From: an uncultured delta proteobacterium
GTDB taxonomy: Bacteria > Desulfobacterota > RBG-13-43-22
Assembly: GCA_963843145.1 (NCBI GenBank)
Contig: CAWJJC010000013.1
Span: 1 to 64,000 of the forward strand
Direction: 5' to 3'
DNA length: 64,000 nt
Position 1 is the first letter of the stretch. Each line of letters starts with the position of its first letter. Both the position numbers and the translations under genes were made by a program. The notes below the pieces were generated by a model. It had not been told where the DNA came from. It was given only the letters and a program-made list of their open reading frames with translations, and searched no databases. Of the stretch, positions 21,231-56,593 are shown one piece after another.

Positions 21231-24200
21231 TTATCGGCCCTCCGTAGCTTGGCTGGGATCGGGCGGCTGCTCAGGGGGATGATCCTCCCGATCGGGGTGC
21301 TTCCCTTTGAATAACTTTCTCACCACGACAAAGAACAGCGGAATATAGAGGACCGCCAGGAAGGTGGCGGTCAGCATCCCCCCGATAACCCCGGTGCCGA
21401 TCGCGTTCTGGGCGCCGGACCCGGCGCCTTTACTGAGGGCCAGCGGCAGCACCCCGAGGATGAAGGCCAGGGAGGTCATCAGGATCGGTCGCAGCCGGAG
21501 CCGCGACGCTTCCCTGGTGGCCTCCAGCAGTCCCACGCCCTGTTCCATCTGCTCCTTGGCGAATTCGACGATCAGAATGGCGTTTTTGGCCGACAGGCCG
21601 ATGATGGTCAGCAGCCCAACCTGGAAATAGACATCGTTGGGAAGTCCCCGCAGCGTCGTGGCCAGGAGGGCCCCAATAACCCCCAAGGGAATCACCAGCA
21701 AAACGGAAATAGGGATAGCCCAGCTTTCATAGAGGGCGGCCAGGCAGAGGAAGACAACCAAAATCGAGATGGCGTACAAGGCCGGCGCCTGGGAACCGGA
21801 CAGCCGTTCCTGGTAAGAGAGTCCGGTCCACTCAAAACCGATGCCGGCGGGTAGTTTGGCGGCCATTTCTTCCATGGCCTTCATGGCATCGCCGGAACTC
21901 TTTCCCGGCGCGGGCTGACCGAGGATCTCCATGGACGGCAGGCCATTGTAGCGCTCCAGCCGCGGAGAACCGGAGCTCCAGTGCGCCGTGGCAAAGGCGG
22001 AGAAAGGCACCATGGTCCCTTGGTTGTTGCGGACATACCACTTGTCCAGGTCCTCCGGCTGCATCCGGTATTGGGCGTCGGACTGGAGATAGACCTTTTT
22101 GATCCGACCTCGGTCGATGAAGTCGTTGACGTAGACGCTTCCCCAGGCGGTGGAGATGGCATCATTGATATCCACCAGGGAGAGACCCAGGGTCCCGGCC
22201 CGGTCCTCATCGATATCCAGCTTGAATTCCGGGGTGTCGGCCTGGCCGTTGGGCCGCACCGCCACCAGGGTCGGGTTTTGGGCCGCCAGGCCTAGAAGCT
22301 GGTTTCTGGCCTCCATCAGTTTGTCGTGACCCAGTCCGGCGCGGTCCTGCAACTGGAAGTCAAAACCGTTGGCAGTACCCATTTCAATAACCGCCGGTGG
22401 CGCGAAGGCAAAAACCAGGGCATCCCGAATAGAAGCAAAGGCGGCCATGGCCTGAGCGGCGACCGCCGTCACCCGCAAGTCAGGACGTTTCCGCAAAGCC
22501 CAGTCTTTAAGCATGACAAAGGCCAGGCCGTTGTTCTGCCCCCGACCGGCAAAGCTGAACCCGGCCACGGCAAATATCGATTTCACCGCCTCCTTCTGGT
22601 CCACGAGGTAGTATCGTTGCACCTCTTCGATCACCTTGAGCGTCCGTTCCTGGGTAGCGCCCACTGGAAGCTGGATTAAGTTCAACAGGATCCCCTGGTC
22701 CTCGTCGGGTAGATAGGCCGTGGGCATCCGCAGAAAAAGGTAGGCCATGGCCACGCCAATCAGCAGATAAATAATCAGATAGCGCGTCCCCGTGACCAGA
22801 ATACGCCCGACCAGGGATTGATAGTGCCCGCTGCCGCGCCGGTAGAGCCGGTTAAACCCGCGGAAGAAGCCCCGAAACAACCCGCTTTCGCCGGCCGGCC
22901 GGGCCGGGTCCACCGGCTTAAGCAGGGTGGCGCAGAGCGCCGGGGTGAGTACCAGGGCCACCACCACCGAAAGCACCATGGCGGAAACGATGGTGATGGA
23001 GAACTGGCGGTAGATAACGCCGGTGGAGCCGCCAAAAAAGGCCATCGGCACGAAGACCGCCGCCAGCACCATGGCGATTCCCACCAAAGCGCCGGTGATC
23101 TGCTTCATGGACTTGCGGGTGGCCTCTATAGGAGGCAACCCCTCTTCGCTCATCACCCGCTCCACGTTCTCCACTACCACGATGGCATCGTCCACCAAAA
23201 GACCGATGGCCAGAACCATGGCGAACATGGTCAGGGTATTGATGGAAAACCCGAAGGCCGACAGGACCCCGAAGGTGCCCAAGAGCACCACCGGCACGGC
23301 AATGGTGGGGATGAGGGTGGCGCGGAAGTTCTGGAGGAAAAGGAACATGACCAGAAAGACCAGGACAATGGCCTCCAGCAGGGTGATGACCACCTCTTCA
23401 ATGGAAAGCCGGACAAAAGGAGTGGTGTCGTAGGGGTAGATCACCTGCAGGCCCTGAGGGAAAAACTTCGCCAATTCCGCCATCTTGGCTTTGACCAGTT
23501 TGGCCGTATCCAGGGCATTGGCGCCGGCCCCCAGCCTGAGCGCCATACCGGATGCCGGTTTGCCGTTGTAAAGCCCCACCGCCTCGTAGCTTTCACTTCC
23601 CAGTTCAACACCGGCTACGTCCCGCAGACGCACGGTGGACCCGTCGCTGTTGATGCGCAGGGGTATCTCCCGGAACTGCTCGGGGGTCTGAAGCAAAGTT
23701 TGGGCCGTGATGGTAGCGTTCAACTGCTGCCCCGCGGCGGACGGCAATCCGCCGAGCTGACCGGCGGAGACCTGCACGTTATAGGCCCTGACGGCCTGCT
23801 TGACATCGCCCGGGGTGAGGCGGTAGTCGTTGAGTTTATGGGGATCGAGCCAGATCCGCATGGCATACTGGGAGCCGAACAATTGTACTTCGCCGACTCC
23901 CTCCACCCGACTGATGATATCCTGAACGTTGGTCACCATAAAATCGGTCAGATCGTAGCGGTTCATACTGCCGTCTTCCGAGACGAAGCCTATGATCAGC
24001 AGGAAGTTCCGGGTCGATTTGGTCACCTGGATCCCCTGCTGCTGAACCACCTGCGGCAACAGCGGGGTGGCCAGTTGCAGTTTGTTCTGTACCTGCACTT
24101 GGGCGATATTCGGATCGGCGGCGGCATCAAAGGTCAGGATGATGCTCACAAAGCCCGAGGAGTCACTGGTCGAGGAAATATAGCTAAGATGGTCGATCCC

Positions 24201-24410
24201 GTTCATCTTTTGTTCAATGACTTGCGTGACCGTGTTCTCGACCGTCTTGGCGGAGGCCCCCGGGTAGACGGCGTTGATGGAGATCTCCGGCGGGGCGATG
24301 GCCGGATACTGCGAGACCGGCAACGTTTTAATCGCCAGGACGCCCGCCAGCATAATGATAATGGCGATCACCCAGGCAAAGATGGGGCGGCTGATAAAAA
24401 ACTGAGACAT
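21231..24410 (-). CDS. acrB: RND efflux permease (AcrB/MexB family)
   Basis: Starts [17 protein letters not shown]; [13 protein letters not shown]; KNAILIVEF; RLRPILMTS. Confidence 0.95.
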
Positions 24411-24420
24411 GAAAACTCCC

Positions 24421-25628
24421 TTATTTCTTAGCTTCGGCGGGACCGGCGGCTGCTCGCGGGGGCCGCCGGGCCGGTCTTGGTTCCGAAGGGAACGGTCTTC
24501 ACGGAAACCCCGGGGCGGACCTTCTGCAACCCCTCCAGAATCACCCGGTCCCCGGGTTTCAGCCCCTGGCTGACCAGCCATTTTTCGCCGATGGATCGCT
24601 CCACCAGCGAGGTCCCGCTGCGCTACCTTGTCGGATCCGTCGACTACCAGGGCGGTGGCCTTCCCCTTGCTATCGTGGGTTACCCCTTGCTGCGGGATAA
24701 GGATCGCCCGCTCGTTCACCCCTTCTTCGAGGATGGCGCGGACATACAAGCCCGGCAGCAGCGTCTGGTTCGGGTTTGGGAAAACCGTGCGCAGGGTGAC
24801 CGACCCGGTACTCGGGTCAACCGTAACGTCGGAAAACTTAAACGTGCCCTGTTGGGGATAGCGAGTACCGTCCTCCAAAAGCAACCGGACCTTGGATTGG
24901 TTGACGCGGTCGTGCTTGAGCCGGCCGTCGGCCATAGCCTGTTTCAGACGCAGCAGATTGGCGGTCGATTGGCTCACATCCACATAGACCGGATCAAGCT
25001 GTTGAATCGTGGCCAGTGCGGTGGCCTGGCTCGCCGTCACCAGCGCGCCGGTCGTTACCGAAGACTTACCGATACGGCCGGAAATCGGCGCCGAGACCCG
25101 GGTGTAGGCCAGATTGATGCGGGCGGTTTCGACGGCCGCTTTATTAACCTCGATGTCCGCCTCGACCTGCTTGAGGGCCGCGACCGTGTCGTCGTAGTCC
25201 TGCTGGCTGACCGCTTTGATGGGTACCAGTTCCTTATACCGCTCCGCCTTGTAGCGAAGGGGGGTTAGATTGGCCTCAGCCCGGACCAGGGCCGCTTTGG
25301 CACTGGCGTAGGCCGCCTGATAGGCGGCCGGGTCAATCCGGTAGAGCACATCCCCCGCCTTGACATCGCCACCCTCCTTGAACAGGCGTTCCTGGATGAT
25401 GCCGCCCACCTGCGGACGAACTTCGGCAACCAGGTAGGCGGACGTGCGTCCGGCCAATTCGGTGGTGATCGCCACGCGCTCCGGTTTTACGGTCACCACG
25501 GCCACTTCGGGAGTGCCGCCCTGATGCGGTCCTCCGGAAGCGGGCGGTTGTCCGCAAGCGGACAGCATCAGTCCCCCGAGGAGAAGGCCGGCGGCGGCGA
25601 TTCGTTTCGATCTGTCATAGATTTGCAT
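24421..25628 (-). CDS. acrA: RND membrane fusion lipoprotein (AcrA family), frameshifted near 24610
   Basis: Lipobox LSAC; [17 protein letters not shown]; canonical tail [24 protein letters not shown] is in another frame ending near 24421-24430. Confidence 0.88.
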
Positions 25629-27566: not shown

Positions 27567-28346
27567 ATGGCCCCCTTGATGCCCGCAATCTTTTTCGGAC
27601 ACGGCAATCCGCTGAATGCCTTGGCCCACAACCCCTATACAGAAGGGTGGGCCTCTATCGGCCCGTCCATCCCGCGCCCCAGGGCTGTCCTCTCCGTATC
27701 CGCTCATTGGTATATCTCCTCTTGTGCGGTAACCTCGAACCAGGTCCCTCCCACTATCCACGATTTCGGCGGCTTCCCGAAAGAGCTTTATCAAGTGAAC
27801 TATCCGGCGCCTGGGAGCCCGGAACTGGCCCGGCAAGTCCGGGAGCTGCTGGACACTCTAACGGTAAGGCTCGATGAAGGCTGGGGGCTGGATCACGGGA
27901 CCTGGACGGTGCTGAGGCACGTCTTTCCCCAGGCGGATATCCCCGTCGTCCAGCTCAGCATCGACGGTACCAAGCCGCCGAAGTTTCATTACGATTTGGG
28001 GAAAAGGATGGCGCCGCTGCGGGAGGAAGGTGTTTTGGTGGTCGGCAGCGGCAATCTGGTTCACAACCTGACCGCCTACGCTTGGGGCGACCGCGAAGCT
28101 CAGGCTTTTGATTGGGCGCTGCGCTTCGAAGAGCGCGTTAGGGAGGCGCTGCTTCAAGGCGACGACGAGGCCCTGGTCGATTACCGGCGTTTCGGCCGGG
28201 ACGCGGCCCTGGCCGTTCCGACGCCGGATCACTACCTGCCGCTGCTCTACGTGCTCGGCCTCCGCCGGGAACAGGAGCCGGTCACCTTTCCGGTCCAGGG
28301 TGTGGACGGGGGCTCCGTATCCATGCTGGCTGTCCGGGTGGGCTGA
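27567..28346 (+). CDS. ygiD: 4,5-DOPA extradiol dioxygenase (LigB family, YgiD-like)
   Basis: FFGHGNP, SAHW, HDFGGFP, GLDHG, GSGNLVHNL, PTPDHYLP. Confidence 0.92.
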   Translation: MAPLMPAIFFGHGNPLNALAHNPYTEGWASIGPSIPRPRAVLSVSAHWYISSCAVTSNQVPPTIHDFGGFPKELYQVNYPAPGSPELARQVRELLDTLTVRLDEGWGLDHGTWTVLRHVFPQADIPVVQLSIDGTKPPKFHYDLGKRMAPLREEGVLVVGSGNLVHNLTAYAWGDREAQAFDWALRFEERVREALLQGDDEALVDYRRFGRDAALAVPTPDHYLPLLYVLGLRREQEPVTFPVQGVDGGSVSMLAVRVG

Positions 28347-28460
28347 TCCTTCCACATTACCCGATTGAACACAAAAGGTAGATCGACTCGCTTGCCGTAA
28401 GGTATCGTCGCGGCCCATCGTTCATCATCCGGCGAGAAAGAAACGAGCCTCCATCTATCC

Positions 28461-31400
28461 CTACTTAAACAAGGACAATTGGGAGTCTGGGAATTTTCGC
28501 TTGTCCAGCTTTTTCTGCAACCGGGCCGCCTCCCTTCGTTTGCCTCGTTTTATCCAGATGGCCAGGGCCTCTTCCAGGAGGTCCATTCGCTCATAGACCC
28601 GGGCCTCTCCCTGTTCGTCTCCGGCCGATTTGAAGCAGCGGAGGGCTTCCTCGTAATGACCGCCGTCCCGGTAGGCTCGCCCCGCTTCCGAATAGGACCC
28701 GGCTTTTTCCAGGATGTGCCCTGCAATTCGAAAATCATGGTTCCGCCGGGCCAGGGAAACGGCCTCCTCAATTTTTCGTTCCCCCAGGAGGAATTCGACG
28801 GCCTGAAGGTAATGTCTCGAACTGGCGCCGAAGAGCTTATAATTCCAACCGGTCAATTCCAGGCGATCCAGGCTGGCTTCGAACAGGTCCTGGTCCTGAT
28901 AAAACTGAACGCAGGCCAAAAGTTCCGGGTCTTTCTCCCGGCCCGCCAGCCGTTTCAGTTCGGCCAGGAATTTTTTCACCACTGGAGAAATAGATCGACC
29001 GAAGAGCTTTCCTTCCCGGACCACCTCGAAAAGCCCGTTATAATAGCGGGTCTGGAGCAGAAAATCCAAAACGGGAGCGGGCGGGCTTGACCCCCAGAAG
29101 GGTATGGTTGAGATGAATTGCTCCACGGCGGGCCGCCACTGCTCCTTACCCCCCTGCCCCAGGAGTCGTCCCAGAAGTTCGGCTACAAAAACCTGGGTCC
29201 GGAGGCGGAGGTGGTAATATTCACCCGTTTTTAGATACTTATTCAAAATGGTCTGAAGAAAGGTCGGTGTAATCTTCAGCCCGGCGGCCTCCGCCACGTA
29301 TCGCCCGGCATCTTCCCAGCGATTGTCTCTTAGAAAATAATCCAGGGCCTCCTGGTCCCGACCGGTCCGGTGATAGGCCTCCCGCACCAAGTCCGGTGCA
29401 TTGACGGTCTTGAACCGGACCAGTGCCCGTTCCAGGGCGCCATCCTTTAAAAACTGTTCTCCTTCCTGGAGGAGTTTCAGTTCCGTCCGGGCCTCCTGCC
29501 GGCCCTCGCCAAGATGGAAGGAAAGGAATTCGGCAGCCCGCTCCCATTTATCCGGAAGCGCACTTTGCTCGATTTCCAGAGCGGCCTGATAGTATTCTTT
29601 CAATGCGTAAAAACACTCGGCGGCTTTTTCATGAACCTTCAGGGCCTGGTACTGGGGCAGGGCCAGGTTGTAAACCCGCTTCTTAAAGAAGAAATCGGCC
29701 GATTCCCGGTATTGCCCCAAGGCGAAGGAACGGACGGCCGCTTTCAGTAGGTTGTTCTTAAACACGGCCTGATTGGCTTCCGCTTTCACGAGGTCGGCCT
29801 GATCTTTACCGGTTCGAGCGAACCGGGTGAAGGCTTCCATAGCCCCAGCCAGGTCCCCGCCCTTTTCATACAGCAGGGCGGCCCGGTAATCGTCCCCTCC
29901 CTTGACGTAGCACTCCAACAATCGGGCCGGGTTTTTCAGCCGTTTATACAGAACGGCGGCCTCGGCCCAGTTGCCGGCCTGGTAAAAAAGGTCCGCCGCT
30001 CGATTGAGCTTTTTCAATTTTTTAAAGAGGGCCGCGGCCTGATCGTACAGCCGTCCGGCCACGAAGGCCTCCGCCGCCTCCGAGTACTTTTTATCGGCGG
30101 CCAGGTATTCGCCCAGGCGTTGATAATTCCCGGCCTTCCGCCAATTCTCCAGGGCCTTGACAATCTCCTTTCTTCGGAGCCACTCCTCCGCGGCCAGGTC
30201 ATGGTCGCCTCGCTGCTCGTAAAGGGCGATCCGGCACAGGGCCATCTTTTCCCGATCCTTTAGTTTTTCCCAAATCCTCAGGGCCGGCTCCCACAACCCG
30301 GACCGCTCAAAACAGGCACCCGCCTGAGGCCAGTAGCCGTGCTTCTCGAAAAGCGGGGCGGCTTCCTGAAATTTCTTTCGCTGCTCCCAAACGAAGGCCT
30401 GGGCGATCTCGGCTCGATCGAGGCGGCCGGCGTTTTTGTAACATTCCAGGGCCGCCGGGTAATACTCCCGCTCCAGGAAGTAATCCCCCTGATCGGCCCA
30501 TTCCTTCGGCGAGGAGACCCGGTGCCAGAGCTGGGCCAGCGCCTCCGGATCGGACGTCGGGAACAAAAGCTCATCCAACTCGGGCAGGTCCCAGATCTCC
30601 CCACCCGGATCATAGACGATAAGGATGTTCCGGGCCCGGGTAATGGCCACATAAAGCAGGTTGATCTCGTGGCGCAGATGCGGTCGGCCGCTTCTCCCGA
30701 AGTCACTGCCGTTACGAAGGCGCCGCCAGAGTGGAACGGATTTCGGGTCGGCGGAAAATTTCCAGACCAGGACCGTATCAAATTCCAGTCCTTTGGCCTC
30801 CTGAATGGTGAAAATCAACTCCGTTCCCAAGGACTGTTTCAGCCGGGTCTGCTCTTCCCGGTCCCGGACAAGAATAACCTGCCCGGCCGCCTGCATCCGC
30901 AGTTGGGACAGGATTTCCCGCTCCTCCCGGACGGTCAGCAGGAAAGGAGGCCGGCCGTTGAATTTCCATTCCTCTCTTATCTCAGAGCCGGACAGCCCGA
31001 TCAGACGCTGTTTAAGGTCCAGTAGGGCATTGGCCAGTTTGACCACACTGCCCACACAACGGAAGTTGATCCGCAGGGAGTGCACCCGGGGGACCTGGAT
31101 TCCACGCTCGAAAAATTTATTCCGCACCTCCTCCCATCGAAAGCCGCTGGGATTGATGATCTGTTTGGTATCCCCGGCCAGAACCACGTTCTCCGGAGAA
31201 CCGGCCAACCGGAAGATCAGGGCCAATTGCACGTCGGCGAAGTCTTGGACTTCGTCACAGACCACCAGATCATATGGGGTTCGGGAGTCGGACCCCTGGC
31301 CCAATCGGCCCAGCACCCGCCGGCAGAGGTCGATCTCATCCCACAGCCCCTGTTCCTCCAGCTTGCCCTGATAATAGGTGGCGATGTCATAGAGCTCCCG

Positions 31401-32690
31401 GCGTTCATACAGAAAATTGGGGGCCCGTTTCTGTCCCAACTGGACGTATTCCGGATAGGTCAGGAGGGGGTCCGAGAGCCCCCTAGATTTTTTCTCCAAG
31501 ATCCGCCCTATCTCCAGCAGCGCCAGCCCCTGTTCTTTCCGCCACAGGCCCTCATCGGTAGTAAGACTCCGGGCCAGCCCTTCCAGACCGGCGAACCCGG
31601 TCTTGCTTTGTAGAAAGGCCTGAATCCTAGGCGCGGTTTCGAGGTTGACCAAACCGAGCAGCCCTTCCTTTAATTCCAGCACCCGGTCCCGCAACAGGGG
31701 CCCCTGGAGGTAGGCCTGGGAAAGGCTCTTCCATCGTTCCAGCCGGAGCACCGGTTTGGCCCCCTTGATAATGGATCGGACTTCCTCCCAGACCAGTTCG
31801 GCATCGTACCGGCTGGACAAGCGGTGATTTCGGAAGAGGACCTCAAATTCACGCAACCGGACTTCCCGGTCCGGGTGGAATGACCCAATCGCCGGGCCGA
31901 GAAGATCCCGAAGGAGGTCCCGGAAGACGCAAAAGTCCGGTCGTAAGTTGGAGTCTTCCAAGCCGGTCCGCACCGTCAGCCCGTCATAGAGGCGCCGGCT
32001 GAAATCCCTCAGAAAAGGGTTGTAGGTCAAAAATAGTTTTCGGTGCCCGGCAAACTCCGGTTTAAGCAGATAGTAGACCGCCAGGGTGGTCTTGCCGCTT
32101 CCAGCGGTACCCGAAATAAGGACCGGCGGGGAGGCTTCCAGCACCCGGGCCTGCTCTTCGGTCAAATAAAGAAACAGCTCCAGGTCATCCGGTTTCCCCG
32201 CCTGGCGAAGCCGCTCCCATTCCTCCTCGTTCAGAATTAGCCACCGCTGGGGCCCGTAGTCGTCCGGCACCTGCGCTTCGATGGCCTCTTGGCTGTAGGC
32301 CGCGGCGGGCAATTCCTCCAGGATGACCTCCGGGTATTCTTCCTGGGTTTCCGGAGCAAAATCCAGGAAGGGGGCGTTTTCAGGCAAGATTCGCCGGGCC
32401 GTCCGGTTGACTTCGTCATGGCCGATCAGCCCCCAGAGATAGACGGCCGTCTGGGAACCCTTCCGGCCCAGGGTGAAAAGCATCCGGTCCGACCGGGAAA
32501 ACCGGGCCTCAAAAACGACCCTCCCGGAGCTGCCTTTCAGCTTCTTGACCCGCAGTCCGGCGTCCCACAGGCCGGCCCGCAGAAACTCCAGTTTTTCAGT
32601 CAGCCTTTCTTTTTCCCTGGCGCCGAGCGACGGCAGGGCCTTTTTAAGGCATTCATTGAGTAGCAAAATATATTTTTGCCCGGACATCAC
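28461..32690 (-). CDS. RelE-like N-domain + SF1 (UvrD-like) helicase + TPR array protein (TRANK1-like), 1409 aa
   Basis: GTAGSGKT, DEVQD, AGDTKQII, NFR, TIQEAKGLEFD, LYVAITRAR; long A/G-rich TPR-like helical C-half; N-terminal KKL-EAR-DR-HD pattern. Confidence 0.85.
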   Translation of the reverse strand: MMSGQKYILLLNECLKKALPSLGAREKERLTEKLEFLRAGLWDAGLRVKKLKGSSGRVVFEARFSRSDRMLFTLGRKGSQTAVYLWGLIGHDEVNRTARRILPENAPFLDFAPETQEEYPEVILEELPAAAYSQEAIEAQVPDDYGPQRWLILNEEEWERLRQAGKPDDLELFLYLTEEQARVLEASPPVLISGTAGSGKTTLAVYYLLKPEFAGHRKLFLTYNPFLRDFSRRLYDGLTVRTGLEDSNLRPDFCVFRDLLRDLLGPAIGSFHPDREVRLREFEVLFRNHRLSSRYDAELVWEEVRSIIKGAKPVLRLERWKSLSQAYLQGPLLRDRVLELKEGLLGLVNLETAPRIQAFLQSKTGFAGLEGLARSLTTDEGLWRKEQGLALLEIGRILEKKSRGLSDPLLTYPEYVQLGQKRAPNFLYERRELYDIATYYQGKLEEQGLWDEIDLCRRVLGRLGQGSDSRTPYDLVVCDEVQDFADVQLALIFRLAGSPENVVLAGDTKQIINPSGFRWEEVRNKFFERGIQVPRVHSLRINFRCVGSVVKLANALLDLKQRLIGLSGSEIREEWKFNGRPPFLLTVREEREILSQLRMQAAGQVILVRDREEQTRLKQSLGTELIFTIQEAKGLEFDTVLVWKFSADPKSVPLWRRLRNGSDFGRSGRPHLRHEINLLYVAITRARNILIVYDPGGEIWDLPELDELLFPTSDPEALAQLWHRVSSPKEWADQGDYFLEREYYPAALECYKNAGRLDRAEIAQAFVWEQRKKFQEAAPLFEKHGYWPQAGACFERSGLWEPALRIWEKLKDREKMALCRIALYEQRGDHDLAAEEWLRRKEIVKALENWRKAGNYQRLGEYLAADKKYSEAAEAFVAGRLYDQAAALFKKLKKLNRAADLFYQAGNWAEAAVLYKRLKNPARLLECYVKGGDDYRAALLYEKGGDLAGAMEAFTRFARTGKDQADLVKAEANQAVFKNNLLKAAVRSFALGQYRESADFFFKKRVYNLALPQYQALKVHEKAAECFYALKEYYQAALEIEQSALPDKWERAAEFLSFHLGEGRQEARTELKLLQEGEQFLKDGALERALVRFKTVNAPDLVREAYHRTGRDQEALDYFLRDNRWEDAGRYVAEAAGLKITPTFLQTILNKYLKTGEYYHLRLRTQVFVAELLGRLLGQGGKEQWRPAVEQFISTIPFWGSSPPAPVLDFLLQTRYYNGLFEVVREGKLFGRSISPVVKKFLAELKRLAGREKDPELLACVQFYQDQDLFEASLDRLELTGWNYKLFGASSRHYLQAVEFLLGERKIEEAVSLARRNHDFRIAGHILEKAGSYSEAGRAYRDGGHYEEALRCFKSAGDEQGEARVYERMDLLEEALAIWIKRGKRREAARLQKKLDKRKFPDSQLSLFK

Positions 32691-34680: not shown

Positions 34681-34938
34681 TTAGGGATGGTGTAAGATAT
34701 CGTGAGTACCCACTTTTCTTAAAAGGTAGATATCTTTTTCAATTTGGAAGGTAAAGCGATCGACGGCGGTGACCCGGCATTCCCAAATATTTCGCGGATC
34801 ATGCATCTTCTTAAGATTTAAGGAGGGGTGCTGGGGATTTGATAATAATAGTTCAAGCTGTTTATCTACGGATTTTTGGATTTTGGAGGACAGCTTCCGA
34901 TAATCCTGGACAAAGTGATGGGTAAAGGCCAATTTCAT
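34681..34938 (-). CDS. RelE/ParE-superfamily toxin
   Basis: HPSLNLKKM, WECRV, DRFTF, VGTHD; overlaps the antitoxin. Confidence 0.8.
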   Translation of the reverse strand: MKLAFTHHFVQDYRKLSSKIQKSVDKQLELLLSNPQHPSLNLKKMHDPRNIWECRVTAVDRFTFQIEKDIYLLRKVGTHDILHHP

Positions 34939-35219
34939 ATTTTGGCGGTTTTAAGGGCTTTCAGGCCTTTCCGGAGGTTTTCAAAAGGCCCTAACACTTT
35001 GCCTCTAGCAATAGCCTCGTCTGCCAGAGCTTCACAGGCCTGCCACTCTTTGGTGAAAAAGTAAGCCTGGTCGGGATGAACCATCTTGACCGGCTTCAAG
35101 ACCAGCTCGCCATCTTGATTTTCAACTTCCAGATAATCGCCAACGGCAATATTGAGAGCCTTTCTTAGCTCGATAGGAATGGTAACCTGGAAATTTTTTT
35201 TAACCTTGACTAAAGACAT
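34935..35219 (-). CDS. AbrB/MazE-family antitoxin
   Basis: VKVKKNFQVTIPIELRKALNIAVGDYL; DQAYFFTKEWQ. Confidence 0.85.
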   Translation of the reverse strand: MSLVKVKKNFQVTIPIELRKALNIAVGDYLEVENQDGELVLKPVKMVHPDQAYFFTKEWQACEALADEAIARGKVLGPFENLRKGLKALKTAKI

Positions 35220-35358
35220 TTCATTTACCCCTGCTTCTTGTTTCAAATTGCAAAATTTACGATTTTAGAAATTTGTAATTTATAATATCATTTTAGCAAA
35301 TGCCCTTTTGCTCTGGCCACAAGTTTTTTCTGAAAAGCTGAGGGCCGCTGTCGATGTC

Positions 35359-35429
35359 GTCACCCCGGTCCCGCGATCCGCGGGATAAACTCCAGTCGGG
35401 ATCCAGACTTGCCTAACCTGGATTCCGGC
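35359..35429. repeat. Degenerate REP-like palindrome
   Basis: gtcaccccgg...gggatccag...ctggattccggc. Confidence 0.55.
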
Positions 35430-35541
35430 TGAGGTTCACTATCAAGAATAAAGGCTTGACTTAACGGCACTGGGTTGGACCCTAAAATAGAACAACCAGC
35501 CCGAATCAAAAGCCGAACCGGTTCCGGCGAAGGGAGGACCA

Positions 35542-36072
35542 ATGGGGGTGCTGGATAAAATCGAGAAAAACGATATCCGGGACCTGCTCGGCAAGGGCTG
35601 GCTGACCCATGACGGGTTGTGGTTTTTCCACACCTGCCGGGAATTGGGTATCGAAAGAGCCAACACCTTGAACCTGGCGGCCATAAAATCCCTCGCACCC
35701 ATCGAGGTCGAGCGGGCCAAACGGATCCTGGGGATGGGCCAGGAGAAGATCCAGGACTTTGACCGGCTCATGGACTTCCTGCTCGCGGCCCTGGAATTGA
35801 CGCTGCCTGCTTCGGTCTTCAAGAAGTGCTCCTTCATTTCGCCAGCTAAAGACGTAATCCGCTGGGAATGGGAGAAAGGGCAATGCTTCGCCTACAAGGG
35901 GATGAAACAGATCGGGGCGATCGATGGCTACCGCTGCGGGGTGATGTACCGGATTGAATGCTGGCTGGAAGCGTTGGGGATCGAATTCTCGATGCACCCC
36001 AGGATCGACGGGTGTCTCATGCATGAAAAGGGTGCCTGTGAGGGGGAAATTCGAGTCTTTCTCCACGGCTGA
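35542..36072 (+). CDS. DUF6125-like conserved hypothetical protein
   Basis: KGWLTHDGLWF motif; conserved Cys (QCFA, YRCG, GCL, ACE); RBS ggagg. Confidence 0.7.
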   Translation: MGVLDKIEKNDIRDLLGKGWLTHDGLWFFHTCRELGIERANTLNLAAIKSLAPIEVERAKRILGMGQEKIQDFDRLMDFLLAALELTLPASVFKKCSFISPAKDVIRWEWEKGQCFAYKGMKQIGAIDGYRCGVMYRIECWLEALGIEFSMHPRIDGCLMHEKGACEGEIRVFLHG

Positions 36073-36600
36073 AAAGCAAGTCTAACTCAAACGAGAGCCC
36101 GATTCGGCGCTGGAGACAGGGATGTTAATCGGGAGCGTTTGTGCCCTTTTGGCCAGTCTTCGGACTTAGGTGGTTGAAACGATCCTGAAAAACCAAATAA
36201 AATGGCGACCAATATTCCTTCAAGAGATTCGTTGACATTTGGAATGATTTTTGTAGGATATGATAAATTCTAGAGCCCGGGCCGGGATTGGTAACATAAA
36301 TTATTATTGACTGGGGCGCTGGAAAACACCGGGTTGGAGGAATTCAGAATAAACAGTAGCGGAATAAGCAACTGGGTCGCATATCGGAGGGCCATCGCCC
36401 AGGATGTGGATCTCGATTTTAACCAAAGGATATTGAACACCCGACCCATCAAATCCATTTTACTGACGTGCAAAAATACGCTCCTTGCGTGTGGCCGACC
36501 TAGACTTTACAAAAGGGATCGAACGAATTTCCAGACACAATATTTAGGCTTTACATTTTGTTGAAACAACCACCACGCAGATATCTCGGGAGGCCAATCG

Positions 36601-37829
36601 ATGCCGCAACTATTAGGTATACGTGTCAAGAACTTTAAGTCACTCCGGAGTGTGAGCCTCGGACAGGTCGGTTACGGGCAAGGCGAAGCCTTACCCCCTC
36701 TAAGTTGCTTTATCGGCCCAAACGGATGCGGAAAATCAAGCTGACTGGACGCGTTTGGGTTCCTCTCCGATTGCTTAAGAGAAGGAGTCGAGGTAGCCTG
36801 TGATAAACCTCAAAAGAGGTGGTTTTGGGAGGCTGCGAACTCAAGTATTTCCATTGATCCATTGAATTTGACCTTTACTATAGAGAGAGTTAAGCGCCCG
36901 ACCAATCACTTATAACTTCGAAGTAGCAGAATTCAATGGTGTTCCATTCGTCCTTCGTGAACATCTTCGCCAACGCCGCAAAGGACAGAAGCATGGTCAA
37001 CCATTCACCTTTCTCCGCTTGGAAAGGGGAAAGGGAGTCGTATGGGCCGGGGATAAGACAGAAGATGAAGAGGGCGCAACCCAACTGGAAATCAAGCTCG
37101 AGGATAACGATCGACTTGGTATCACAACGCTCGGCCAACTGTCGGAACATCCGCGCATAGTGGGGCTGGCGAGTCATATCTGAGTTGGTATCTCGTCCTA
37201 TTTCGTCCCTGATGCGGCACTGACGACTCCCCCCGCAGGTGCACAGAAACATCTTGATCGTACCGGGGAAAACCTCTAAATGTAGTACAGTATCTGGAAA
37301 GAAACCATAGGGATCGTTTGAGAGTATCCTAGAGCGAATCCGAAAGCGGATACCTGGAATAGAGAGGATTAAGCCCGAGAAAAGCCAGGACGGTCGTCTT
37401 CTCTCTGAGATTCAACGAACGAGGCTACGAGGATCCAACTTTTTTCAGCATAGTATGTCTGATGGGACATTAAAGATGTTTGCTTATTTGTTGCTTCTTG
37501 AAGGATCCTGAGCCCCCGGGCATTTATCGGCATCGAGGAACCAGAGAATGGACTCTATCATAGATTGGTCGAGCAACTCGCCCGAGAATTTAGGCGATAC
37601 GCTGAGAAATCCAAAGGAAAGATCCAGGCGCTCATCACCACGCATTCTCCTCAGTTCGTAGATGCCTTGAGCCCTGAAACAGGTATGGCTTATGGAGAAG
37701 GATGATAAAGGATTTACACAGGTGAAGAGAATCGGCGGACATGCCGGTAATCAGCGCTCTAGACGAAGAAGGTATACCTCTCGGCAGCCTTTGGATAGCA
37801 ATCATTTTGAAGAGAGGTTTGAAGGATGA
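36601..37829 (+). pseudogene. ABC/AAA_21-type ATPase, disrupted by an in-frame stop and multiple frameshifts
   Basis: IRVKNFKSL, Walker A GPNGCGKS followed by TGA 36742; MSDGTLKMFAYLLLL, IEEPENGLYH and TTHSP occur in shifting frames. Confidence 0.85.
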
Positions 37830-38455
37830 GGATTCACATTCTCGTTGAAGGTCCATCAGAAAGGGCTTTTCTAGAAGGATGGCTGCCGAGATTCCTCCCC
37901 CCTCAACACTCATTTAGAATTATCCCGCACAGAGGAAAAGGAAAGGTTCCTGACCACCCATCAAGAAACCAGATCCAAAACGCCAAGGTCTCCTTGATCA
38001 ATTGCCTGCTAAATAAGGGCCTACGGGCAGGGAGCGAGACCTGATGCGGATAGAATTCTTGTACTCATCGATTTAGATCATGATGATTGTTTTGATCTCA
38101 AAAGCCGTATGGTCGACCTGCTCAACTATTGCAGTCCTCCGCCTGTAGCTCTCTTCAGAATAGCGATCGAGGAAACTGAAGCTTTCTATCTTGGTGATAA
38201 ATCTGCCATCCGCAGTGCTTTTCCAAGGTCTTAGGCTATCAAAGATGGATCTCCTATATCCAAGACAGTATCTGCGCCACATGGGAACTATTTCGAGAAG
38301 TAATTGGAGAATCAGCCGACGATAAGGTAAAATGGGCCAAACTAATGGGTACCCATCTGGCAACAGAGTGGAAAGGTGTCTCTGCAAACAGCTCTAAGTC
38401 ATTTCGGCAGTTCTGCAAGGGAATACTGAAACTTGCAGGGGAAGCAATTGATTAA
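37826..38455 (+). pseudogene. DUF4276-family (TOPRIM-like) protein, frameshifted
   Basis: MRIHILVEGPSERAFL, HRGK, DLDHDD, AIEETEAFYLGD, NSSKSFRQF; ATGA overlap with the ATPase. Confidence 0.8.
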
Positions 38456-38684
38456 AATTAAGGGATTCGGGCAGACGGGCCGGATTAGATGATTGATGAT
38501 CTCACATAACGTCAACGGACACATTAAAGGACGTGATAAAATAATCCAGTTTTTGGAAGTGCCCCATGCCTGAAGCGAAGAAATAGAATTACGCATCCGC
38601 GTTTAAGAAAGAGAGCGATCAAGGCGTTGCAGAGACACGGCTACCCGTGGCGGAAGGTCAGCCTTGATCGCCGCCGTTAGGCTT

Positions 38685-38878
38685 CATATGAAATGATCCT
38701 TCTCCTCCAGTGTGGAGTTCCCATTTAAATATTCCGGCCACTGTTCCAATTCCTTGCCCATACCCTCCTCGGCCATAGCCTTCTCCTTAACCGGATCAAG
38801 CTTCGCACATTCCCTGGCCAAGCGGTTTCTTTCAAGTTTTTTTAGTTTTTTTTCCATGGCATTCTGAATGGCTTTACC
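38685..38878 (-). pseudogene. C-terminal half of a CopG-type (MazF-associated) antitoxin
   Basis: [28 protein letters not shown]...EQWPEY; no RHH N-terminus. Confidence 0.65.
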
Positions 38879-39391
38879 TCAGTAGAAGAGTTGTCCTTCA
38901 ACGACGCGATCCGAATCGTCAATCAAAACTCCCTCCATTTTCAGCAAAACCCGTTTCATTTCAACCCCGCCCTGAAAACCACCGAGGGTTCCGTCGGAAC
39001 GGATGGCCCGGTGACAGGGGACGATGATGGGAAAAGGGTTATGAGCCAGGACGGTGCCGACGGCCCTGGCAGCCTGCGGATGGCCCAAGTACCCGGCGAT
39101 CCGCTGATAGGTGCTCACCTTTCCCCGGGGAATTCCATGCTCCGCCCGCAAGACCTGCTGCTGAAAGGGAGAGCATAGATCGAGGCGGGTGACGTCGAGG
39201 GAGAAGCGCAAGTCCTCTCCGGCCAGAAAGGCCGGGATCCGGTCGGCCACCCTATCGATCTCGGCAGACGAAGAAGCGCTGGAATCCGGAAACAAGGTTC
39301 TGATCGTCTGTTTGGCCGAAACCCCGGGCCGGGAAAGCAGGACGCGCAGGATCTTCGGCTGCCCTTGGTGGACCGACCAGAGGATGGCCAC
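38879..39391 (-). CDS. ogt: Methylated-DNA-protein-cysteine methyltransferase, copy 1 (start uncertain)
   Basis: IPRGKVSTY, ARAVG, NPFPIIVPCHR active site. Confidence 0.88.
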   Translation of the reverse strand: MAILWSVHQGQPKILRVLLSRPGVSAKQTIRTLFPDSSASSSAEIDRVADRIPAFLAGEDLRFSLDVTRLDLCSPFQQQVLRAEHGIPRGKVSTYQRIAGYLGHPQAARAVGTVLAHNPFPIIVPCHRAIRSDGTLGGFQGGVEMKRVLLKMEGVLIDDSDRVVEGQLFY

Positions 39392-39454
39392 CGGACCGAA
39401 ACGGCTTTCGCGAAAGTGGTGGAAGCTATGGGCTGTTTCTATTTTTTTAATGCG

Positions 39455-39712
39455 TTAGGCACTCTTTTTCTGAAAATCCGGGGTATGAATGATTCCCAGC
39501 AGACCATCGACCGAGAGGTCCTCATCCAGCAGGGGCCAGTGGATTCCGTATCCGGAGGGGGAGATTTCAAAGTTGTTCCGTTCCTCTTCCGAGGCCCCGG
39601 AGAGTGCGGAAGAAATCTCCCGAATTAAGAATTTTTTTTCCTCTCCGTTAAAGGTAAGGACTAACCAGTCTCCCTGGAATTGAAGATTAGTGAGCCGATG
39701 ATATTGGGTCAT
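39455..39712 (-). CDS. DUF2442-family protein (TA pair with DUF4160)
   Basis: ERNNFEISPSGYGIHWPLLDEDLSVDGLL. Confidence 0.85.
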   Translation of the reverse strand: MTQYHRLTNLQFQGDWLVLTFNGEEKKFLIREISSALSGASEEERNNFEISPSGYGIHWPLLDEDLSVDGLLGIIHTPDFQKKSA

Positions 39713-39966
39713 GACCGCCGTCTCCTCTGAAATTCTTCCCACTGCTCCTCGATGTACTCAAAATGCCCGAAAATTATTTTTCTGATTTCCCGCTTGTCTT
39801 TTGAAGACAGGTTAAAGGCAAAAGCTTCCTGAATTTCAAAAGTTTCGCTGTTTAGCCAATACTTGCATTCCAACTCTCCCTTGCGGCAATGGACATGAAT
39901 GGGTTCTTGGCCCTCATTGGAGTAGAAAAAAAGTCTCCATCCCAGGATCATGAGAATGGTCGGCAT
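39709..39966 (-). CDS. DUF4160-family protein
   Basis: MPTI...FFYSNEGQEPIHVH, KYWL. Confidence 0.88.
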   Translation of the reverse strand: MPTILMILGWRLFFYSNEGQEPIHVHCRKGELECKYWLNSETFEIQEAFAFNLSSKDKREIRKIIFGHFEYIEEQWEEFQRRRRS

Positions 39967-40079
39967 GAATTAATCCCTTTTCAGAATCTAAGTATATATT
40001 TTACTCTATTTGATTGCAAAAAAGAATAGCTATGTTGGCCTAGGCCGCCTGCGCATTGCCCCGATGTCCGGCGATCCGC

Positions 40080-53907: not shown

Positions 53908-56593
<2,686 letters not shown>

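Follow-up and report, generated by a model that had tools for sequence, protein, structure and literature searches.

A RelE-like domain, a TRANK1-type helicase and a variable repeat tail in one bacterial protein: a putative ATP-gated RNase with a possible role in defence

The gene at 28461-32690 of the window (the whole stretch of 64,000 nucleotides analysed here) encodes one polypeptide. It opens with a putative RNase domain of the RelE type, continues through an acidic linker into a UvrD-like SF1 helicase of the TRANK1 type, and ends in a TPR-like solenoid of variable sequence. Judged by its sequence, the gene product has TRANK1 as its animal counterpart. According to the best explanation, to which we assign a probability of about one half, it is a self-contained, ATP-gated, translation-targeting putative RNase with a conflict or defence role resembling abortive infection. 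The features are as follows.

28461..32690, minus strand: whole open reading frame, 1409 aa, GTG start, stop codon 28461-28463 (ORF call)
32379..32678, minus strand: predicted RelE/ParE-fold (BECR) domain, residues 5-104, net basic (AF2 model, Foldseek, VIA-align, ESM Atlas, hhalign)
32418..32510, minus strand: putative catalytic residues E61 (32508-32510), R63 (32502-32504), R69 (32484-32486) and H91 (32418-32420) (conservation)
32166..32378, minus strand: NAPFL motif, strongly acidic linker and pre-helicase element, residues 105-175 (conservation; aligns with a TRANK1 segment)
30531..32165, minus strand: UvrD-like SF1 helicase core, residues 176-720 (Pfam UvrD-helicase, UvrD_C, UvrD_C_2, AAA_19)
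32085-32111, 31242-31256 and 30630-30653, minus strand: helicase motifs Walker A, II (DEVQD) and VI, respectively
31470..31760, minus strand: family-specific, poorly conserved helical insert in the helicase, residues about 311-407 (unaligned against TRANK1)
28464..30530, minus strand: TPR-like alpha-solenoid, residues 721-1409 (Pfam, hhalign, BLASTP)
34681-34938, minus strand: stand-alone RelE-family toxin, a comparator and not part of the system (weak Pfam ParE_toxin match; family profile to RelE3/RelE)
34935-35246, minus strand: MazE/AbrB-type antitoxin of the comparator (Pfam MazE_antitoxin, 1.1e-13)

The sequence-only reading had described an intact ORF of three parts. The frame is indeed a single open one, and the division into a RelE-like N-terminal domain, a UvrD-like SF1 helicase and a TPR-like C-terminus was borne out by Pfam and by conservation across 48 homologues. 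The second codon is an ATG (32685-32687) with a Shine-Dalgarno-like stretch (GAGAGGAAG) just before it, and this ATG rather than the GTG is probably the true start. A 100% identical database copy (P0002, 1408 aa) begins at the same ATG.

The N-terminal domain is predicted to have the RelE/ParE fold. In an AF2 model of residues 1-180 (overall pLDDT 73; 10-residue blocks over residues 21-100 averaging 71-92), the order of its elements is beta-alpha-alpha-beta-beta-beta-beta, with a helix at the end. Foldseek against the PDB gave aRelE (1wmi) as the best match (E 1.8e-4, target-normalised TM 0.77); the next were YoeB, RelE, Cami1, YafQ and HigB. When the model was compared with 48,161 chains by VIA-align, the 26 best rows (Z 9.2-4.7) were without exception RelE/ParE toxins or toxin domains, and the first unrelated row appeared at Z 4.5. 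The nearest ESM Atlas clusters were 'RelE family toxin' (0.93, 183/256 features), and one orthologue carries the JGI name 'mRNA-degrading endonuclease RelE'. Searches with the sequence of the domain gave no Pfam match even at E<=10, no recognition by the RelE/ParE models of Pfam and NCBIfam, and no RelE in a profile search of PDB sequences, so that membership rests on predicted structure, one profile-profile link and the language-model search. Plain BLASTP did not align the domain with the RelE-like ORF at 34681-34938. A 40-sequence profile of the domain matched this ORF in hhalign with a probability of 63.7% (E 6.7e-5) and a 27-sequence profile of the stand-alone toxin family with 95.7% (E 1e-8); the profile of the toxin family in turn found M. 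jannaschii RelE3 (1.7e-9) and E. coli RelE (7e-4) in the PDB. A by-eye alignment to the toxin at 34681 had originally suggested the RelE fold; hhalign reproduced its register (VKKL / FEAR~WECR / DR), and the fold itself was recovered by Foldseek, VIA-align and ESM Atlas and by the hhalign comparison with a genuine RelE family.

E61, R63, R69 and H91 are invariant in the alignment of 48 homologues, and this E-R-R-H set appears to be retained at the positions of the RelE active site, which makes a catalytic role of these residues putative. Via alignments of the stand-alone toxin family, E61, R63 and R69 correspond to K52, K54 and R61 of E. coli RelE. H91 is aligned to an invariant His of the toxin family; its probable equivalence to RelE R81 follows from motif likeness (VG.HD vs VGKRE), no tool alignment to RelE reaching H91. 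According to passages of Neubauer et al. (2009, PMC2807027), superposition on RNase Sa2 places RelE K52 at the general-base Glu, R81 at the general-acid His, and K54 and R61 at the two Arg of that enzyme. The charge at E61 is opposite to that of RelE K52, which we count against the best reading.

An alternative that we consider improbable holds that the RelE-like domain no longer acts as a nuclease and serves the TRANK1-type helicase as an RNA-, DNA- or ribosome-binding accessory, the protein being a remodelling motor or scaffold and no toxin. The failure of Pfam, NCBIfam and PDB-sequence profiles to find the domain and the lack of an antitoxin agree with this, and the domain is constant among relatives instead of modular, which fits an integral, possibly non-toxic helicase accessory and counts against the best reading. 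Likewise, the activity of the analogous RelE-like RTL domain of CoCoNuT CnuH is called uncertain in a section of PMC11090510. However, among rows covering all four sites E-R-R-H is kept in 119/119 of the family, 54/58 of tier-1 and 64/65 of tier-2, the stand-alone toxin family, which does have an antitoxin, possesses the same four residues, and 17/18 aligned TRANK1 sequences have E, K, R and H at these positions.

In the helicase, Walker A, DExQD, GD..Q, NFR, T..EAKGLEF and Y/V..TRAR are without variation across the 48 homologues. Together with the Pfam matches this substantiates the complete SF1 motif set noticed before, which is predicted to be ATPase-competent. The large insertion described after VWEEVRSIIKG occupies about residues 330-407, a stretch missing from TRANK1 according to hhalign; the mean pairwise identity of the insert (residues about 311-407) is 33% vs 56-61% elsewhere in the helicase. 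In tier-2 bacterial relatives the helicase core is about 90 aa shorter, and the stretch appears to be missing there as well. UvrD-like SF1A helicases are classically DNA motors, which also counts against the best reading. ParE toxins of the same fold reached Z 5.8-7.0 in the structure search, and PADLOC gave domain-level matches to GajB/UvrD-type defence helicases. These observations would suit a DNA-directed conflict enzyme, with a ParE-like domain aimed at gyrase or another DNA enzyme and the helicase acting on plasmid or phage DNA. We regard this as very unlikely, since RelE, YoeB and HigB outrank ParE (Z 8-9.2 vs 7.0 or less), the conserved E-R-R-H fits an RNase active site, and the loci share no conserved nuclease partner, whether of the OLD/GajA type or another.

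Within residues 105-175, F108, L109, Q148, W150 and R160 are invariant in the 48 homologues, and residues 110-147 contain on average 12.6 acidic vs 1.8 basic residues. We infer that the acidic linker may be autoinhibitory. A strongly acidic segment directly after a basic toxin-like domain might also indicate a selfish fused toxin-antitoxin (addiction) module, in which the linker is the built-in antitoxin and the helicase-repeat body cargo or regulator, and which persists by post-segregational killing and not by host benefit. Fused single-gene modules of this kind exist in the RelE/ParE superfamily according to part of PMC11980606, and one distant member is plasmid-borne. Still, this is the least probable reading in our view: addiction needs far less than a conserved helicase-repeat body of 1300 aa whose ATPase motifs are invariant, the copies lie mostly in chromosomal, non-mobile contexts, and one polypeptide provides no differential stability of toxin and antitoxin.

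The kinship to TRANK1, suggested earlier by motifs, is specific and does not extend equally to UvrD, as several comparisons made evident. TRANK1 was the best match of the 'longer' search (E about 1e-32), and hhalign against it gave a probability of 100% (E 9.8e-67, 926 columns, query columns 25 to 1117). UvrD of the PDB reached only E 0.006. The alignment with TRANK1 shows collinear homology with the animal protein through the RelE-like domain, the pre-helicase element and the helicase into the proximal repeats. BLASTP against toad TRANK1 (E 1e-40) reached residue 1008 and paired residues 13-75 with TRANK1 812-878. It also aligned the motifs LVWEEVRSIIKG/LVWKEIKSFLKG, GQVILV/HQVILV, TIQEAKGLEFD/TIYEAKGLEFD, LLYVAITRAR/QLYTAITRAR and SSPKEWADQGDY/STKEEWISQGDY, and the motifs named in the sequence-only reading are therefore real, except that the P of 'SxPxEW' is absent there. 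In a quick tree with four UvrD-like helicases as outgroup, TRANK1-type proteins and bacterial RelE-helicases formed one clade apart from the outgroup (SH-aLRT 98).

An HMM of the bacterial N-domain matched TRANK1 entries about 200 aa upstream of their Walker A, with 19/70 long proteins at i-E<0.01. Because the profile-profile alignment is collinear, TRANK1 appears to carry the same RNase-like domain. Modelling of this TRANK1 segment with AF2 gave no information on its fold (pLDDT 52.7). This domain of TRANK1 itself had been overlooked in the sequence-only reading, and the literature searched contains no mention of it. As a separate observation, TRANK1 and 'interferon-stimulated' occur together in 31 papers of a literature listing; TRANK1 stands in an interferon-stimulated-gene screening list in the portion of PMC6880163 concerned.

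The expected TPR-like helices of the C-terminus were reflected in weak Pfam matches over residues 850-1395 (Clathrin 1.4e-10, TPR_GEMI5, SNAP). The proximal solenoid is homologous to the repeats of TRANK1 and the distal solenoid is the most variable region, identity within the family being 42% for residues 721-1000 and 27-33% beyond, compared with 56-61% in the helicase. In distant relatives, the RelE-like domain and the helicase are constant and the C-terminal repeats differ (TPR/SNAP/Clathrin, LRR, WG, Sel1). The proposed logic of an NTPase plus a variable repeat sensor thus agrees with the types of repeats among relatives and with the low conservation of the distal ones. The search for homologues with swapped N-terminal effectors, by contrast, revealed no exchange: 44/48 divergent N-domain matches carry a UvrD-type helicase, the other four are fragments of 330-504 aa, and the N-domain clade was found only fused to helicases. 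The earlier interpretation as a whole is partly supported: architecture, fold, TRANK1 kinship, single gene, the lack of a named PADLOC match and the logic of NTPase plus variable repeats were upheld, and the analogy to Avs/NLR proteins failed on effector exchange.

The gene is rare, patchily distributed and accessory. It was present in 5/401 genomes of the phylum sample and in 2/14 genomes of the sister genus; among relatives there were full-length copies in 4/41, plus one decayed remnant in a same-genus genome. No family member was found in viral contigs and phage records. One distant member is carried by a plasmid of a cyanobacterium, adjoining ParA, integrase and DUF262/DUF3696 genes. No neighbour is conserved (the top neighbour family occurs in <=8/85 loci), and no small ORF is conserved within 700 nt (61 loci upstream, 49 downstream), which agrees with the presumed single-gene organisation and the absence of a coupled antitoxin. 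The gene had also been placed among toxin-antitoxin and defence-like genes; toxin-antitoxin modules are indeed nearby, but no recognised defence system adjoins it in the window. A credible PADLOC defence gene was among the nearest ORFs in only 6/60 related loci (a raw count), and evidence for a defence-island context of the family is weak.

The neighbours of related loci are mostly housekeeping genes, with BipA/TypA in 3 loci, and the protein is conserved across phyla over 97-100% of its length (38-50% identity). These features favour a housekeeping or stress-response factor for RNA surveillance or ribosome rescue without a defence role, whose helicase tracks mRNA, whose RelE-like domain cuts in stalled ribosomes and whose repeats dock on ribosomes or partners. 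The evidence for RelE fold and helicase fits this equally, and the two form an obligate unit that is never swapped. The rarity of the gene nevertheless makes a core function unlikely, and the decayed remnant, the plasmid-borne member and the varying types of C-terminal repeat also speak against a surveillance factor, which we judge unlikely.

For the preferred reading, a gated RNase with a biological role most likely in conflict or defence, we propose the following mechanism. In the resting state, the adjacent acidic linker, the helicase-repeat body or both would silence the basic RNase domain in cis, which would make a separate antitoxin unnecessary. The C-terminal repeats would bind a trigger, such as a foreign protein or an aberrant RNA or ribosome state, the helicase would bind or translocate on RNA, and its ATP cycle would release or position the RNase domain. 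This domain might then cut ribosome-bound mRNA as do RelE and YoeB, leading to translation shutdown. Against this mechanism, access to the ribosomal A site may be hard for a RelE domain that has 1300 aa attached to it. If the proposal is true, the interferon-listed TRANK1 would be this machine's eukaryotic descendant or cousin.

No named PADLOC 2.0 system matched, consistent with the suggestion of an undescribed system, and NCBIfam scores were far below the UvrD, PcrA, Rep, RecB, HelD and HelR cut-offs (35.9 bits vs 911 for PcrA). The UvrD-like core gives partial PADLOC matches to Gabija GajB and UvrD-like defence helicases (best GajB, E 1.1e-12), but these cover motif segments only and never the whole model, and a GajA/OLD partner is neither present at the gene nor conserved among loci. 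Avs and bacterial NLR-like STAND antiviral ATPases likewise combine an N-terminal nucleic-acid-cutting domain, a central NTPase and C-terminal repeats in a single gene. The analogy drawn earlier holds for NTPase and variable repeats, but here the NTPase is an SF1 helicase instead of a STAND ATPase and the N-terminal domain is fixed; PADLOC Avs models did not match the protein. Stand-alone type II RelE toxins, such as that of the pair at 34681-35246, share the fold, E-R-R-H and the KK and HD motifs, but are small proteins of about 85 aa that come with an antitoxin and occur frequently (75/301 genomes of the phylum). Cami1 (CARF-RelE), a type III CRISPR ancillary ribosome-dependent RNase, is likewise a single polypeptide without an antitoxin in which a RelE-fold RNase is fused to a sensor or regulatory domain, and its structure matches the model of the N-domain (ranks 6 and 12 in Foldseek; VIA-align Z 8.0). 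It is gated by cyclic oligoadenylate through CARF, a domain that Pfam did not find in the 1409-aa protein, and is devoid of helicase and repeats.

CnuH of CoCoNuT types II and III-A consists of an SmpB-like OB fold, a RelE/colicin D-like 'RTL' domain and an SF1 helicase, as presented in parts of Bell et al. (eLife 2024, PMC11090510). These parts describe a predicted RNA-targeting conflict system with a RelE-fold domain directly N-terminal to the helicase that was found by structure, not sequence; in our distant relative P0330, too, an OB fold precedes the RelE-like domain. As far as the same parts show, CnuH is UPF1-like (SF1B) and belongs to McrBC-type operons of several genes, in which HEPN, PLD or Vsr effectors are separate proteins, whereas the protein studied here has a UvrD-like helicase, a stand-alone gene, a TPR-like tail and conserved active-site residues. 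TRANK1 (TPR and ankyrin repeat-containing protein 1), an uncharacterised protein of animals and other eukaryotes, differs by its size of 2500-3800 aa, its N-terminal TPR and ankyrin repeats, a long C-terminal extension, a loop within the RelE-like domain, long inserts in helicase domain 1 and the lack of the bacterial helicase insert, but it has the same layout, is collinear and shares the signature motifs.

The subject gene, on the minus strand of the window, is one open frame 1409 codons long. It opens with a GTG that is directly followed by an ATG with a purine-rich ribosome-binding stretch before it, and the identical database protein (P0002) begins at this ATG and not at the GTG. A LigB-family gene lies downstream and is convergent with the subject gene. 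The nearest features, together with the stand-alone toxin used for comparison, are:

27858-28418, minus strand: 186-aa ORF just downstream of the subject gene, overlapping the LigB gene, no family match
28461-32690, minus strand: subject gene, 1409 codons
32942-33399, plus strand: RHH antitoxin gene (90 aa) followed by a VapC/PIN fragment (first 62 aa; NCBIfam VapC positions 1-56 of 130), upstream of and divergent from the subject gene
34681-34938, minus strand: stand-alone RelE-family toxin, with its antitoxin partner at 34935-35246

Since the 186-aa ORF overlaps the LigB gene and matches no family, the subject gene looks monocistronic. At the orthologous locus L011, a full 131-aa PIN gene occupies the place of the 62-aa VapC stub (L011:9169-9564), so the divergent TA module of the window looks decayed. 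A scan for promoters and terminators around the subject gene yielded no more sites than shuffled sequence, and its GC content (0.55-0.60) was not distinct from that of the flanks. A stretch of lower GC content lies beyond the gene (35000-40000; 0.47-0.53 versus about 0.59 on the side of the subject gene) and is possibly an acquired island; it contains small ORFs without family matches, a DUF4160/DUF2442 pair (39455-39966) and one of the two MGMT-like genes of the window (38879-39391, the other being at 43410-44036). The sequence-only reading had placed the subject gene among TA and defence-like genes. Several TA modules are indeed present in the window, but the surroundings otherwise consist of chromosomal housekeeping genes. 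A gene for a DUF559 (Vsr-like) endonuclease (46766-47293, minus strand) and one for a stand-alone MazF-family toxin (45051-45407, plus strand), both 12-14 kb from the subject gene, are further examples of the TA and nuclease genes dispersed through the region.

Two further loci of the window deserve mention. The overlapping ORFs of 515 and 220 aa at 53990-56115 (minus strand) both match the haem peroxidase family PF00141 and look like two parts of one catalase-peroxidase gene, interrupted by a frameshift or by an error of assembly. A 1465-aa ORF (21231-25628, minus strand), followed by an outer-membrane factor gene, combines a HlyD/CusB-like membrane-fusion part (residues 67-296) with a complete AcrB-type RND pump (407-1437); such a fusion of periplasmic adaptor and RND transporter in one ORF is unusual. 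With respect to expression of the subject gene, contigs of the wetland metatranscriptome run X7 were 95-99% alike over window positions 28414-28975, 28996-29146 and 32538-32688, the shares of other sequencing runs being small. As DNA carry-over is possible, these contigs hint at most weakly at transcription of a close relative of the gene.

Pfam recognised only the middle and the tail of the protein; residues 1-120 and 1-147 matched no family even at E ≤ 10. The curated RelE/ParE sequence models (Pfam ParE_toxin, YoeB, HigB and others; NCBIfam RelE_StbE) did not match the N-terminal domain (residues 5-104), and no RelE-type model (RelE_StbE etc.) was among the NCBIfam matches of the whole protein. 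BLASTP gave no alignment between the domain and the neighbouring 85-aa RelE-like ORF, so that profile methods were needed. An AlphaFold2 model of residues 1-180 built from 48 sequences (pLDDT 73 overall; 10-residue blocks over residues 21-100 averaging 71-92) predicted the order E-H-H-E-E-E-E-H, in keeping with the compact RelE/ParE alpha/beta fold, in which N-terminal helices pack on an antiparallel sheet. In a Foldseek search of the PDB, the model matched archaeal RelE 1wmi first (E 1.8e-4, TM 0.77 on the target), followed by YoeB, T. thermophilus RelE, Cami1, YafQ and HigB (TM to the target up to 0.78). A VIA search of 48,161 chains returned RelE/ParE toxins or toxin domains in all of its top 26 rows, with Z scores of 9.2 for HigB-type 6af3, 8.6 for YoeB, 8.5 for aRelE, 8.0 for Cami1 and 7.0 or lower for ParE; the first unrelated row after this block had a Z score of 4.5. 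Likewise, 'RelE family toxin' clusters came first (0.93) in a protein-language-model search (ESM Atlas) with residues 1-112, and one orthologue is named 'mRNA-degrading endonuclease RelE' by the JGI pipeline.

The first reading had aligned the N-terminal domain by eye with the stand-alone toxin of the window, and hhalign reproduced exactly this register when a 40-sequence profile of the domain (A4) was compared with that toxin (probability 63.7%). Against a 27-sequence profile of the toxin's family (A5), the probability rose to 95.7% (E 1e-8), and A5 in turn matched the solved structures of M. jannaschii RelE3 (1.7e-9) and E. coli RelE (7e-4). RelE was absent from a direct hmmsearch of PDB sequences with the N-domain profile, in which the best match was the non-significant McrB N-terminal domain (E 0.11); the sequence link to RelE is therefore transitive and not direct. 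A single HigB-like neighbour sequence was also tried as a relative of the domain and dropped, as hhalign detected no relation (probability 0.1%). Together, the predicted structure and the profiles argue for a domain of RelE type, as the sequence-only reading had supposed.

In chained alignments via the toxin family, E61, R63 and R69 of the domain were placed on K52, K54 and R61 of E. coli RelE, and in a joint alignment H91-D92 fell on the invariant H-D of the toxin family. The likeness of the motifs VG.HD and VGKRE, judged without a tool alignment, suggests that H91 is the equivalent of RelE R81, and on this assignment conserved polar residues are present at all four RelE positions. In the superposition described by Neubauer et al. 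(2009; PMC2807027), the general-base Glu of RNase Sa2 is matched by RelE K52, its general-acid His by R81, and its two transition-state arginines by K54 and R61. By comparison with RNase Sa2, the N-terminal domain would thus carry Glu/Arg/Arg/His, the classical microbial-RNase set. Counting rows that cover all four sites, E-R-R-H was found throughout the ~1400-aa family (119 of 119); the counts were 54 of 58 for additional representatives and 64 of 65 for relatives at greater distance. This near-universal conservation argues for a working enzyme, and we consider the domain a probable active RNase.

The linker that follows (residues 105-175) is conserved as well and comprises an NAPFL motif, a strongly acidic stretch with on average 12.6 acidic versus 1.8 basic residues, and a DYGPQKW element; the domain preceding it is net basic. 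We propose that the RNase domain might be masked in cis by this linker and/or the protein body. A complex prediction for residues 1-104 with residues 105-175 (score 0.29, mark 0.32) speaks neither for nor against such an inhibition.

Roughly residues 184-692 matched the Pfam families UvrD-helicase (4.2e-11), UvrD_C (1.6e-8), UvrD_C_2 and AAA_19. The helicase has the motifs Q, I, II, III, IV, V and VI of SF1A enzymes in two RecA-like domains, in agreement with the complete SF1 motif set noted from the sequence, and the Q motif, GTAGSGKT, DExQD, GD..Q, NFR, T..EAKGLEF and Y/V..TRAR were invariant in 48 full-length homologues. With every SF1 motif invariant, the ATPase is expected to be functional. 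All scores against the NCBIfam models of UvrD, PcrA, Rep, RecB, HelD and HelR were far below the cut-offs (best score PcrA, 35.9 bits versus 911.2), and PADLOC 2.0 gave only partial GajB/UvrD-type domain matches and no match to a named system. These outcomes indicate a UvrD-like helicase outside the named helicase and defence families of those libraries. UvrD-like motors usually act on DNA.

The TPR-like helices proposed for the C-terminal part were recovered as weak Pfam Clathrin, TPR_GEMI5 and SNAP repeats over residues 850-1395, and an ESM Atlas search with the C-terminal 689 aa gave only TPR/SNAP/Clathrin-flavoured leads (0.80 or lower). Conservation within the ~1400-aa family is lowest in the distal repeats, with a mean pairwise identity of 27-33% compared to 57% for the RelE-like domain and 56-61% for the helicase.

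When residues 176-900 were compared with proteins of more than 2466 aa, vertebrate TRANK1 proteins ranked first (E about 1e-32, 24-28% identity, 60-75% coverage), ahead of TRANK1-like proteins from invertebrates, algae, fungi, plants and protists; UvrD in the PDB reached only E 0.006. BLASTP aligned residues 350-1008 with toad TRANK1 (E 1e-40) and, as a separate segment, residues 13-75 of the N-terminal domain with toad residues 812-878. The TRANK1 kinship proposed in the first reading for the helicase-TPR region was borne out and extended by hhalign, which aligned the bacterial family with 18 animal TRANK1 sequences at a probability of 100% (E 9.8e-67, 926 columns). This alignment is collinear over query columns 25-1117 and takes in the RelE-like domain, the pre-helicase element, the helicase and the proximal repeats, so that the subject protein has the collinear arrangement of RelE-like domain, TRANK1-type helicase and TPR-like repeats. 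With the bacterial N-domain HMM, the TRANK1 matches fell at one and the same relative place, some 200 aa before Walker A, and E, K, R and H are kept at the four positions in 17 of the 18 aligned TRANK1 sequences, the exception being cnidarian. An AlphaFold2 model of the toad segment 796-960 (23 sequences) was too poor for use (pLDDT 52.7), for which reason the putative RelE fold of this segment rests on the profile alignment.

A quick maximum-likelihood tree was built from the helicase core, with several long branches and composition warnings. All RelE-helicases and TRANK1-type helicases grouped together in it (SH-aLRT 98), separate from four UvrD-like helicases taken from related genomes. Within this group, the eukaryotic clade (96), the clade of the subject family (96) and a second bacterial clade formed an unresolved trichotomy. 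We infer from these comparisons that bacterial RelE-helicases and TRANK1 share a common origin, a claim that leaves out the direction of transfer; the three-part architecture and the homology to TRANK1 we regard as very likely. The proteins differ in size (1409 aa versus 2500-3800 aa), and TRANK1 has N-terminal TPR and ankyrin repeats and a long C-terminal region, whereas Pfam found no ankyrin family in the subject protein (P0001). A literature search for a link of TRANK1 to RelE or to bacterial homologues found none; judging by titles and abstract openings, the listed papers that mention both TRANK1 and helicase are largely infection or expression studies and not protein analyses. One screen drew on a list of interferon-stimulated genes that includes TRANK1 (PMC6880163).

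When the N-domain profile was run against 1.84 billion representatives in an exhaustive HMM search, 213 proteins were returned. Beyond the ~1400-aa family, they include a second tier of 800-1900 aa, in which 44 of the 48 proteins scanned contain a UvrD-type helicase, the remaining four being fragments of 330-504 aa. Their tails are TPR/SNAP/Clathrin-like, LRR (P0296), WG (P0314) or Sel1 repeats (P0273), or almost absent. RelE-like domain and helicase thus appear as an obligate pair to which varying repeats are attached. Among the 150 matches listed, there were no short stand-alone toxins apart from short entries resembling fragments of the ~1400-aa family. A few second-tier proteins have N-terminal extensions, including an OB fold; in P0330 (1860 aa), an OB fold of the tRNA_anti-codon family (23-92) stands upstream of the RelE-like domain (267-367) and the helicase. 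Members occur in Bacillus tianshenii (WLR52632.1) and in a Paenibacillus genome assembled from a metagenome (MDF2721490.1).

A word-index search found 430 homologues. The 120 matches listed are almost all 1388-1521 aa long with 97-100% coverage and derive, by name, from Desulfobacterota ('Deltaproteobacteria'), Spirochaetota including Sphaerochaeta, and Marinimicrobia. In a comparison of 41 relatives, full-length copies were present in the genome of the window, in one genome of the same genus and in 2 of 14 genomes of the sister genus, and an even sample of the phylum had the gene in 5 of 401 genomes. Another genome of the same genus (locus L005, G001:C12:44346-44807) retains only about the last 154 residues at 71% identity and with an internal stop, consistent with a decaying remnant and with gain and loss of the gene. 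Viral contigs gave two weak helicase-only matches and no family member, and phage records gave no match. A distant member is located on a Crinalium plasmid (L127, NC_019755.1) next to ParA, integrase and DUF262/DUF3696 genes. In this gene (L127 9001-12321), the annotated start of WP_015205634.1 lies 33 nt downstream of the point where the tblastn match of the N-terminal domain begins, and may cut off the first strand of this RelE-like domain.

Across 84 related loci and the window, no neighbouring gene family recurred in more than 8 loci, no adjacent cognate antitoxin gene of type II TA kind was seen, and no conserved small ORF was found within 700 nt on either side, in line with the earlier view that the protein is not coupled to an antitoxin. 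Metabolic or regulatory genes make up most of the nearest neighbours, and PIN, HigB, MazF, Phd and Barstar genes are scattered among them. A credible PADLOC defence neighbour (E ≤ 1e-15) was present at 6 of 60 loci (raw count), namely HmaA, a type I restriction subunit (REase), a SNF2/ZorD-like helicase and, at three loci, PDC-S01 ATPases; TA genes adjoin the homologue at about seven further loci. BipA/TypA (beside three loci) and AAA_14/DUF4143 ATPases (eight loci) were considered as partners and rejected as too infrequent. At L042, a 671-aa GHKL-type ATPase (HATPase_c_3; L042:1472-3487, plus strand) lies immediately upstream of the homologue (L042:3574-7806) on the same strand, the only such case among 60 loci. 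One sentence of a 2026 preprint mentions Tiamat-type GHL ATPases adjoining a helicase with an N-terminal RelE-like domain.

Beyond the masking proposed above, our model supposes that the repeat tail would sense a trigger, that the ATP cycle of the helicase would license the RNase, and that the licensed RNase would stop translation. An accessory function in conflict is favoured by the fixed RNase-like domain with conserved catalytic-type residues, the intact motor, the variable repeat tail, the rarity and patchiness of the gene, and the lack of an antitoxin. Against an immune role weigh the effector that is never swapped, the only weakly defence-like genomic context, and the usual action of UvrD-like motors on DNA. 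On balance, we give this gated-RNase conflict model as a whole a probability of about 0.5. A bolder and rather doubtful extension would be that the bacterial family and eukaryotic TRANK1 represent a single ancient immune enzyme: an RNase of RelE type that targets ribosomes, is gated by a helicase and carries a repeat sensor. The bacterial proteins would then act as single-gene anti-phage abortive-infection systems. If true, the interferon-listed TRANK1 would be an antiviral RNase directed at translation, with a catalytic domain that has so far escaped notice, and the family would be added to cGAS-STING, viperin, gasdermin and NLR/Avs in the set of innate-immune machinery common to bacteria and animals.

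TRANK1 is a giant, conserved, interferon-listed animal protein without known biochemical function, and its core is common, domain for domain, to a compact bacterial protein. Part of this core is a RelE-like domain not reported before, in which catalytic-type residues are conserved. The puzzle can now be put to the test: does the protein cut RNA at the ribosome, and what is the trigger? For bacteria, the family would add a single-gene conflict-system design in which a helicase incorporates a type II toxin fold without an antitoxin gene and repeat 'sensors' vary among relatives. Because members are found in B. tianshenii, the metagenomic Paenibacillus and the Crinalium plasmid, experiments look feasible.

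With respect to known systems, the single-gene RelE-UvrD-like-helicase-repeat family is absent from PADLOC 2.0, and the main text of a 2025 survey of multidomain RelE/ParE toxins (Gerdes 2025, PMC11980606) contains no occurrence of helicase, UvrD, TPR or TRANK. An RNase-like domain in TRANK1 was not found in print, though supplementary tables of the cited papers might list such fusions. The analogy to Avs/NLR proteins drawn in the sequence-only reading holds in part. Variable C-terminal repeat sensors have their counterpart in the TPR/SNAP/Clathrin, LRR, WG and Sel1 tails of the relatives. However, Avs/NLR proteins have a STAND core (NACHT/NB-ARC type) and the subject protein a UvrD-like helicase, with no Avs/NLR model among the listed PADLOC matches. 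For the exchangeable N-terminal effectors of Avs/NLR, no parallel was seen in the search with the N-domain profile, in which all matches with a recognisable body were helicase fusions (44 of 48 scanned); the converse search, from the helicase to other N-termini, was less than exhaustive. In CoCoNuT systems, a RelE/colicin D-like RTL domain stands in front of the UPF1-like CnuH helicase (PMC11090510). CnuH is an SF1B enzyme encoded in a McrBC-type operon, whereas the helicase described here belongs to UvrD Pfam families and not to AAA_11/AAA_12, and McrB/McrC neighbours were seen neither in the window nor at the related loci. The domain order of P0330 recalls the CnuH arrangement of SmpB-like OB, RTL and helicase. 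Cami1 (CARF-RelE), a structural match to the predicted N-domain model, likewise has a RelE fold within a larger defence protein. The components and the general logic of the subject protein are of known kinds.
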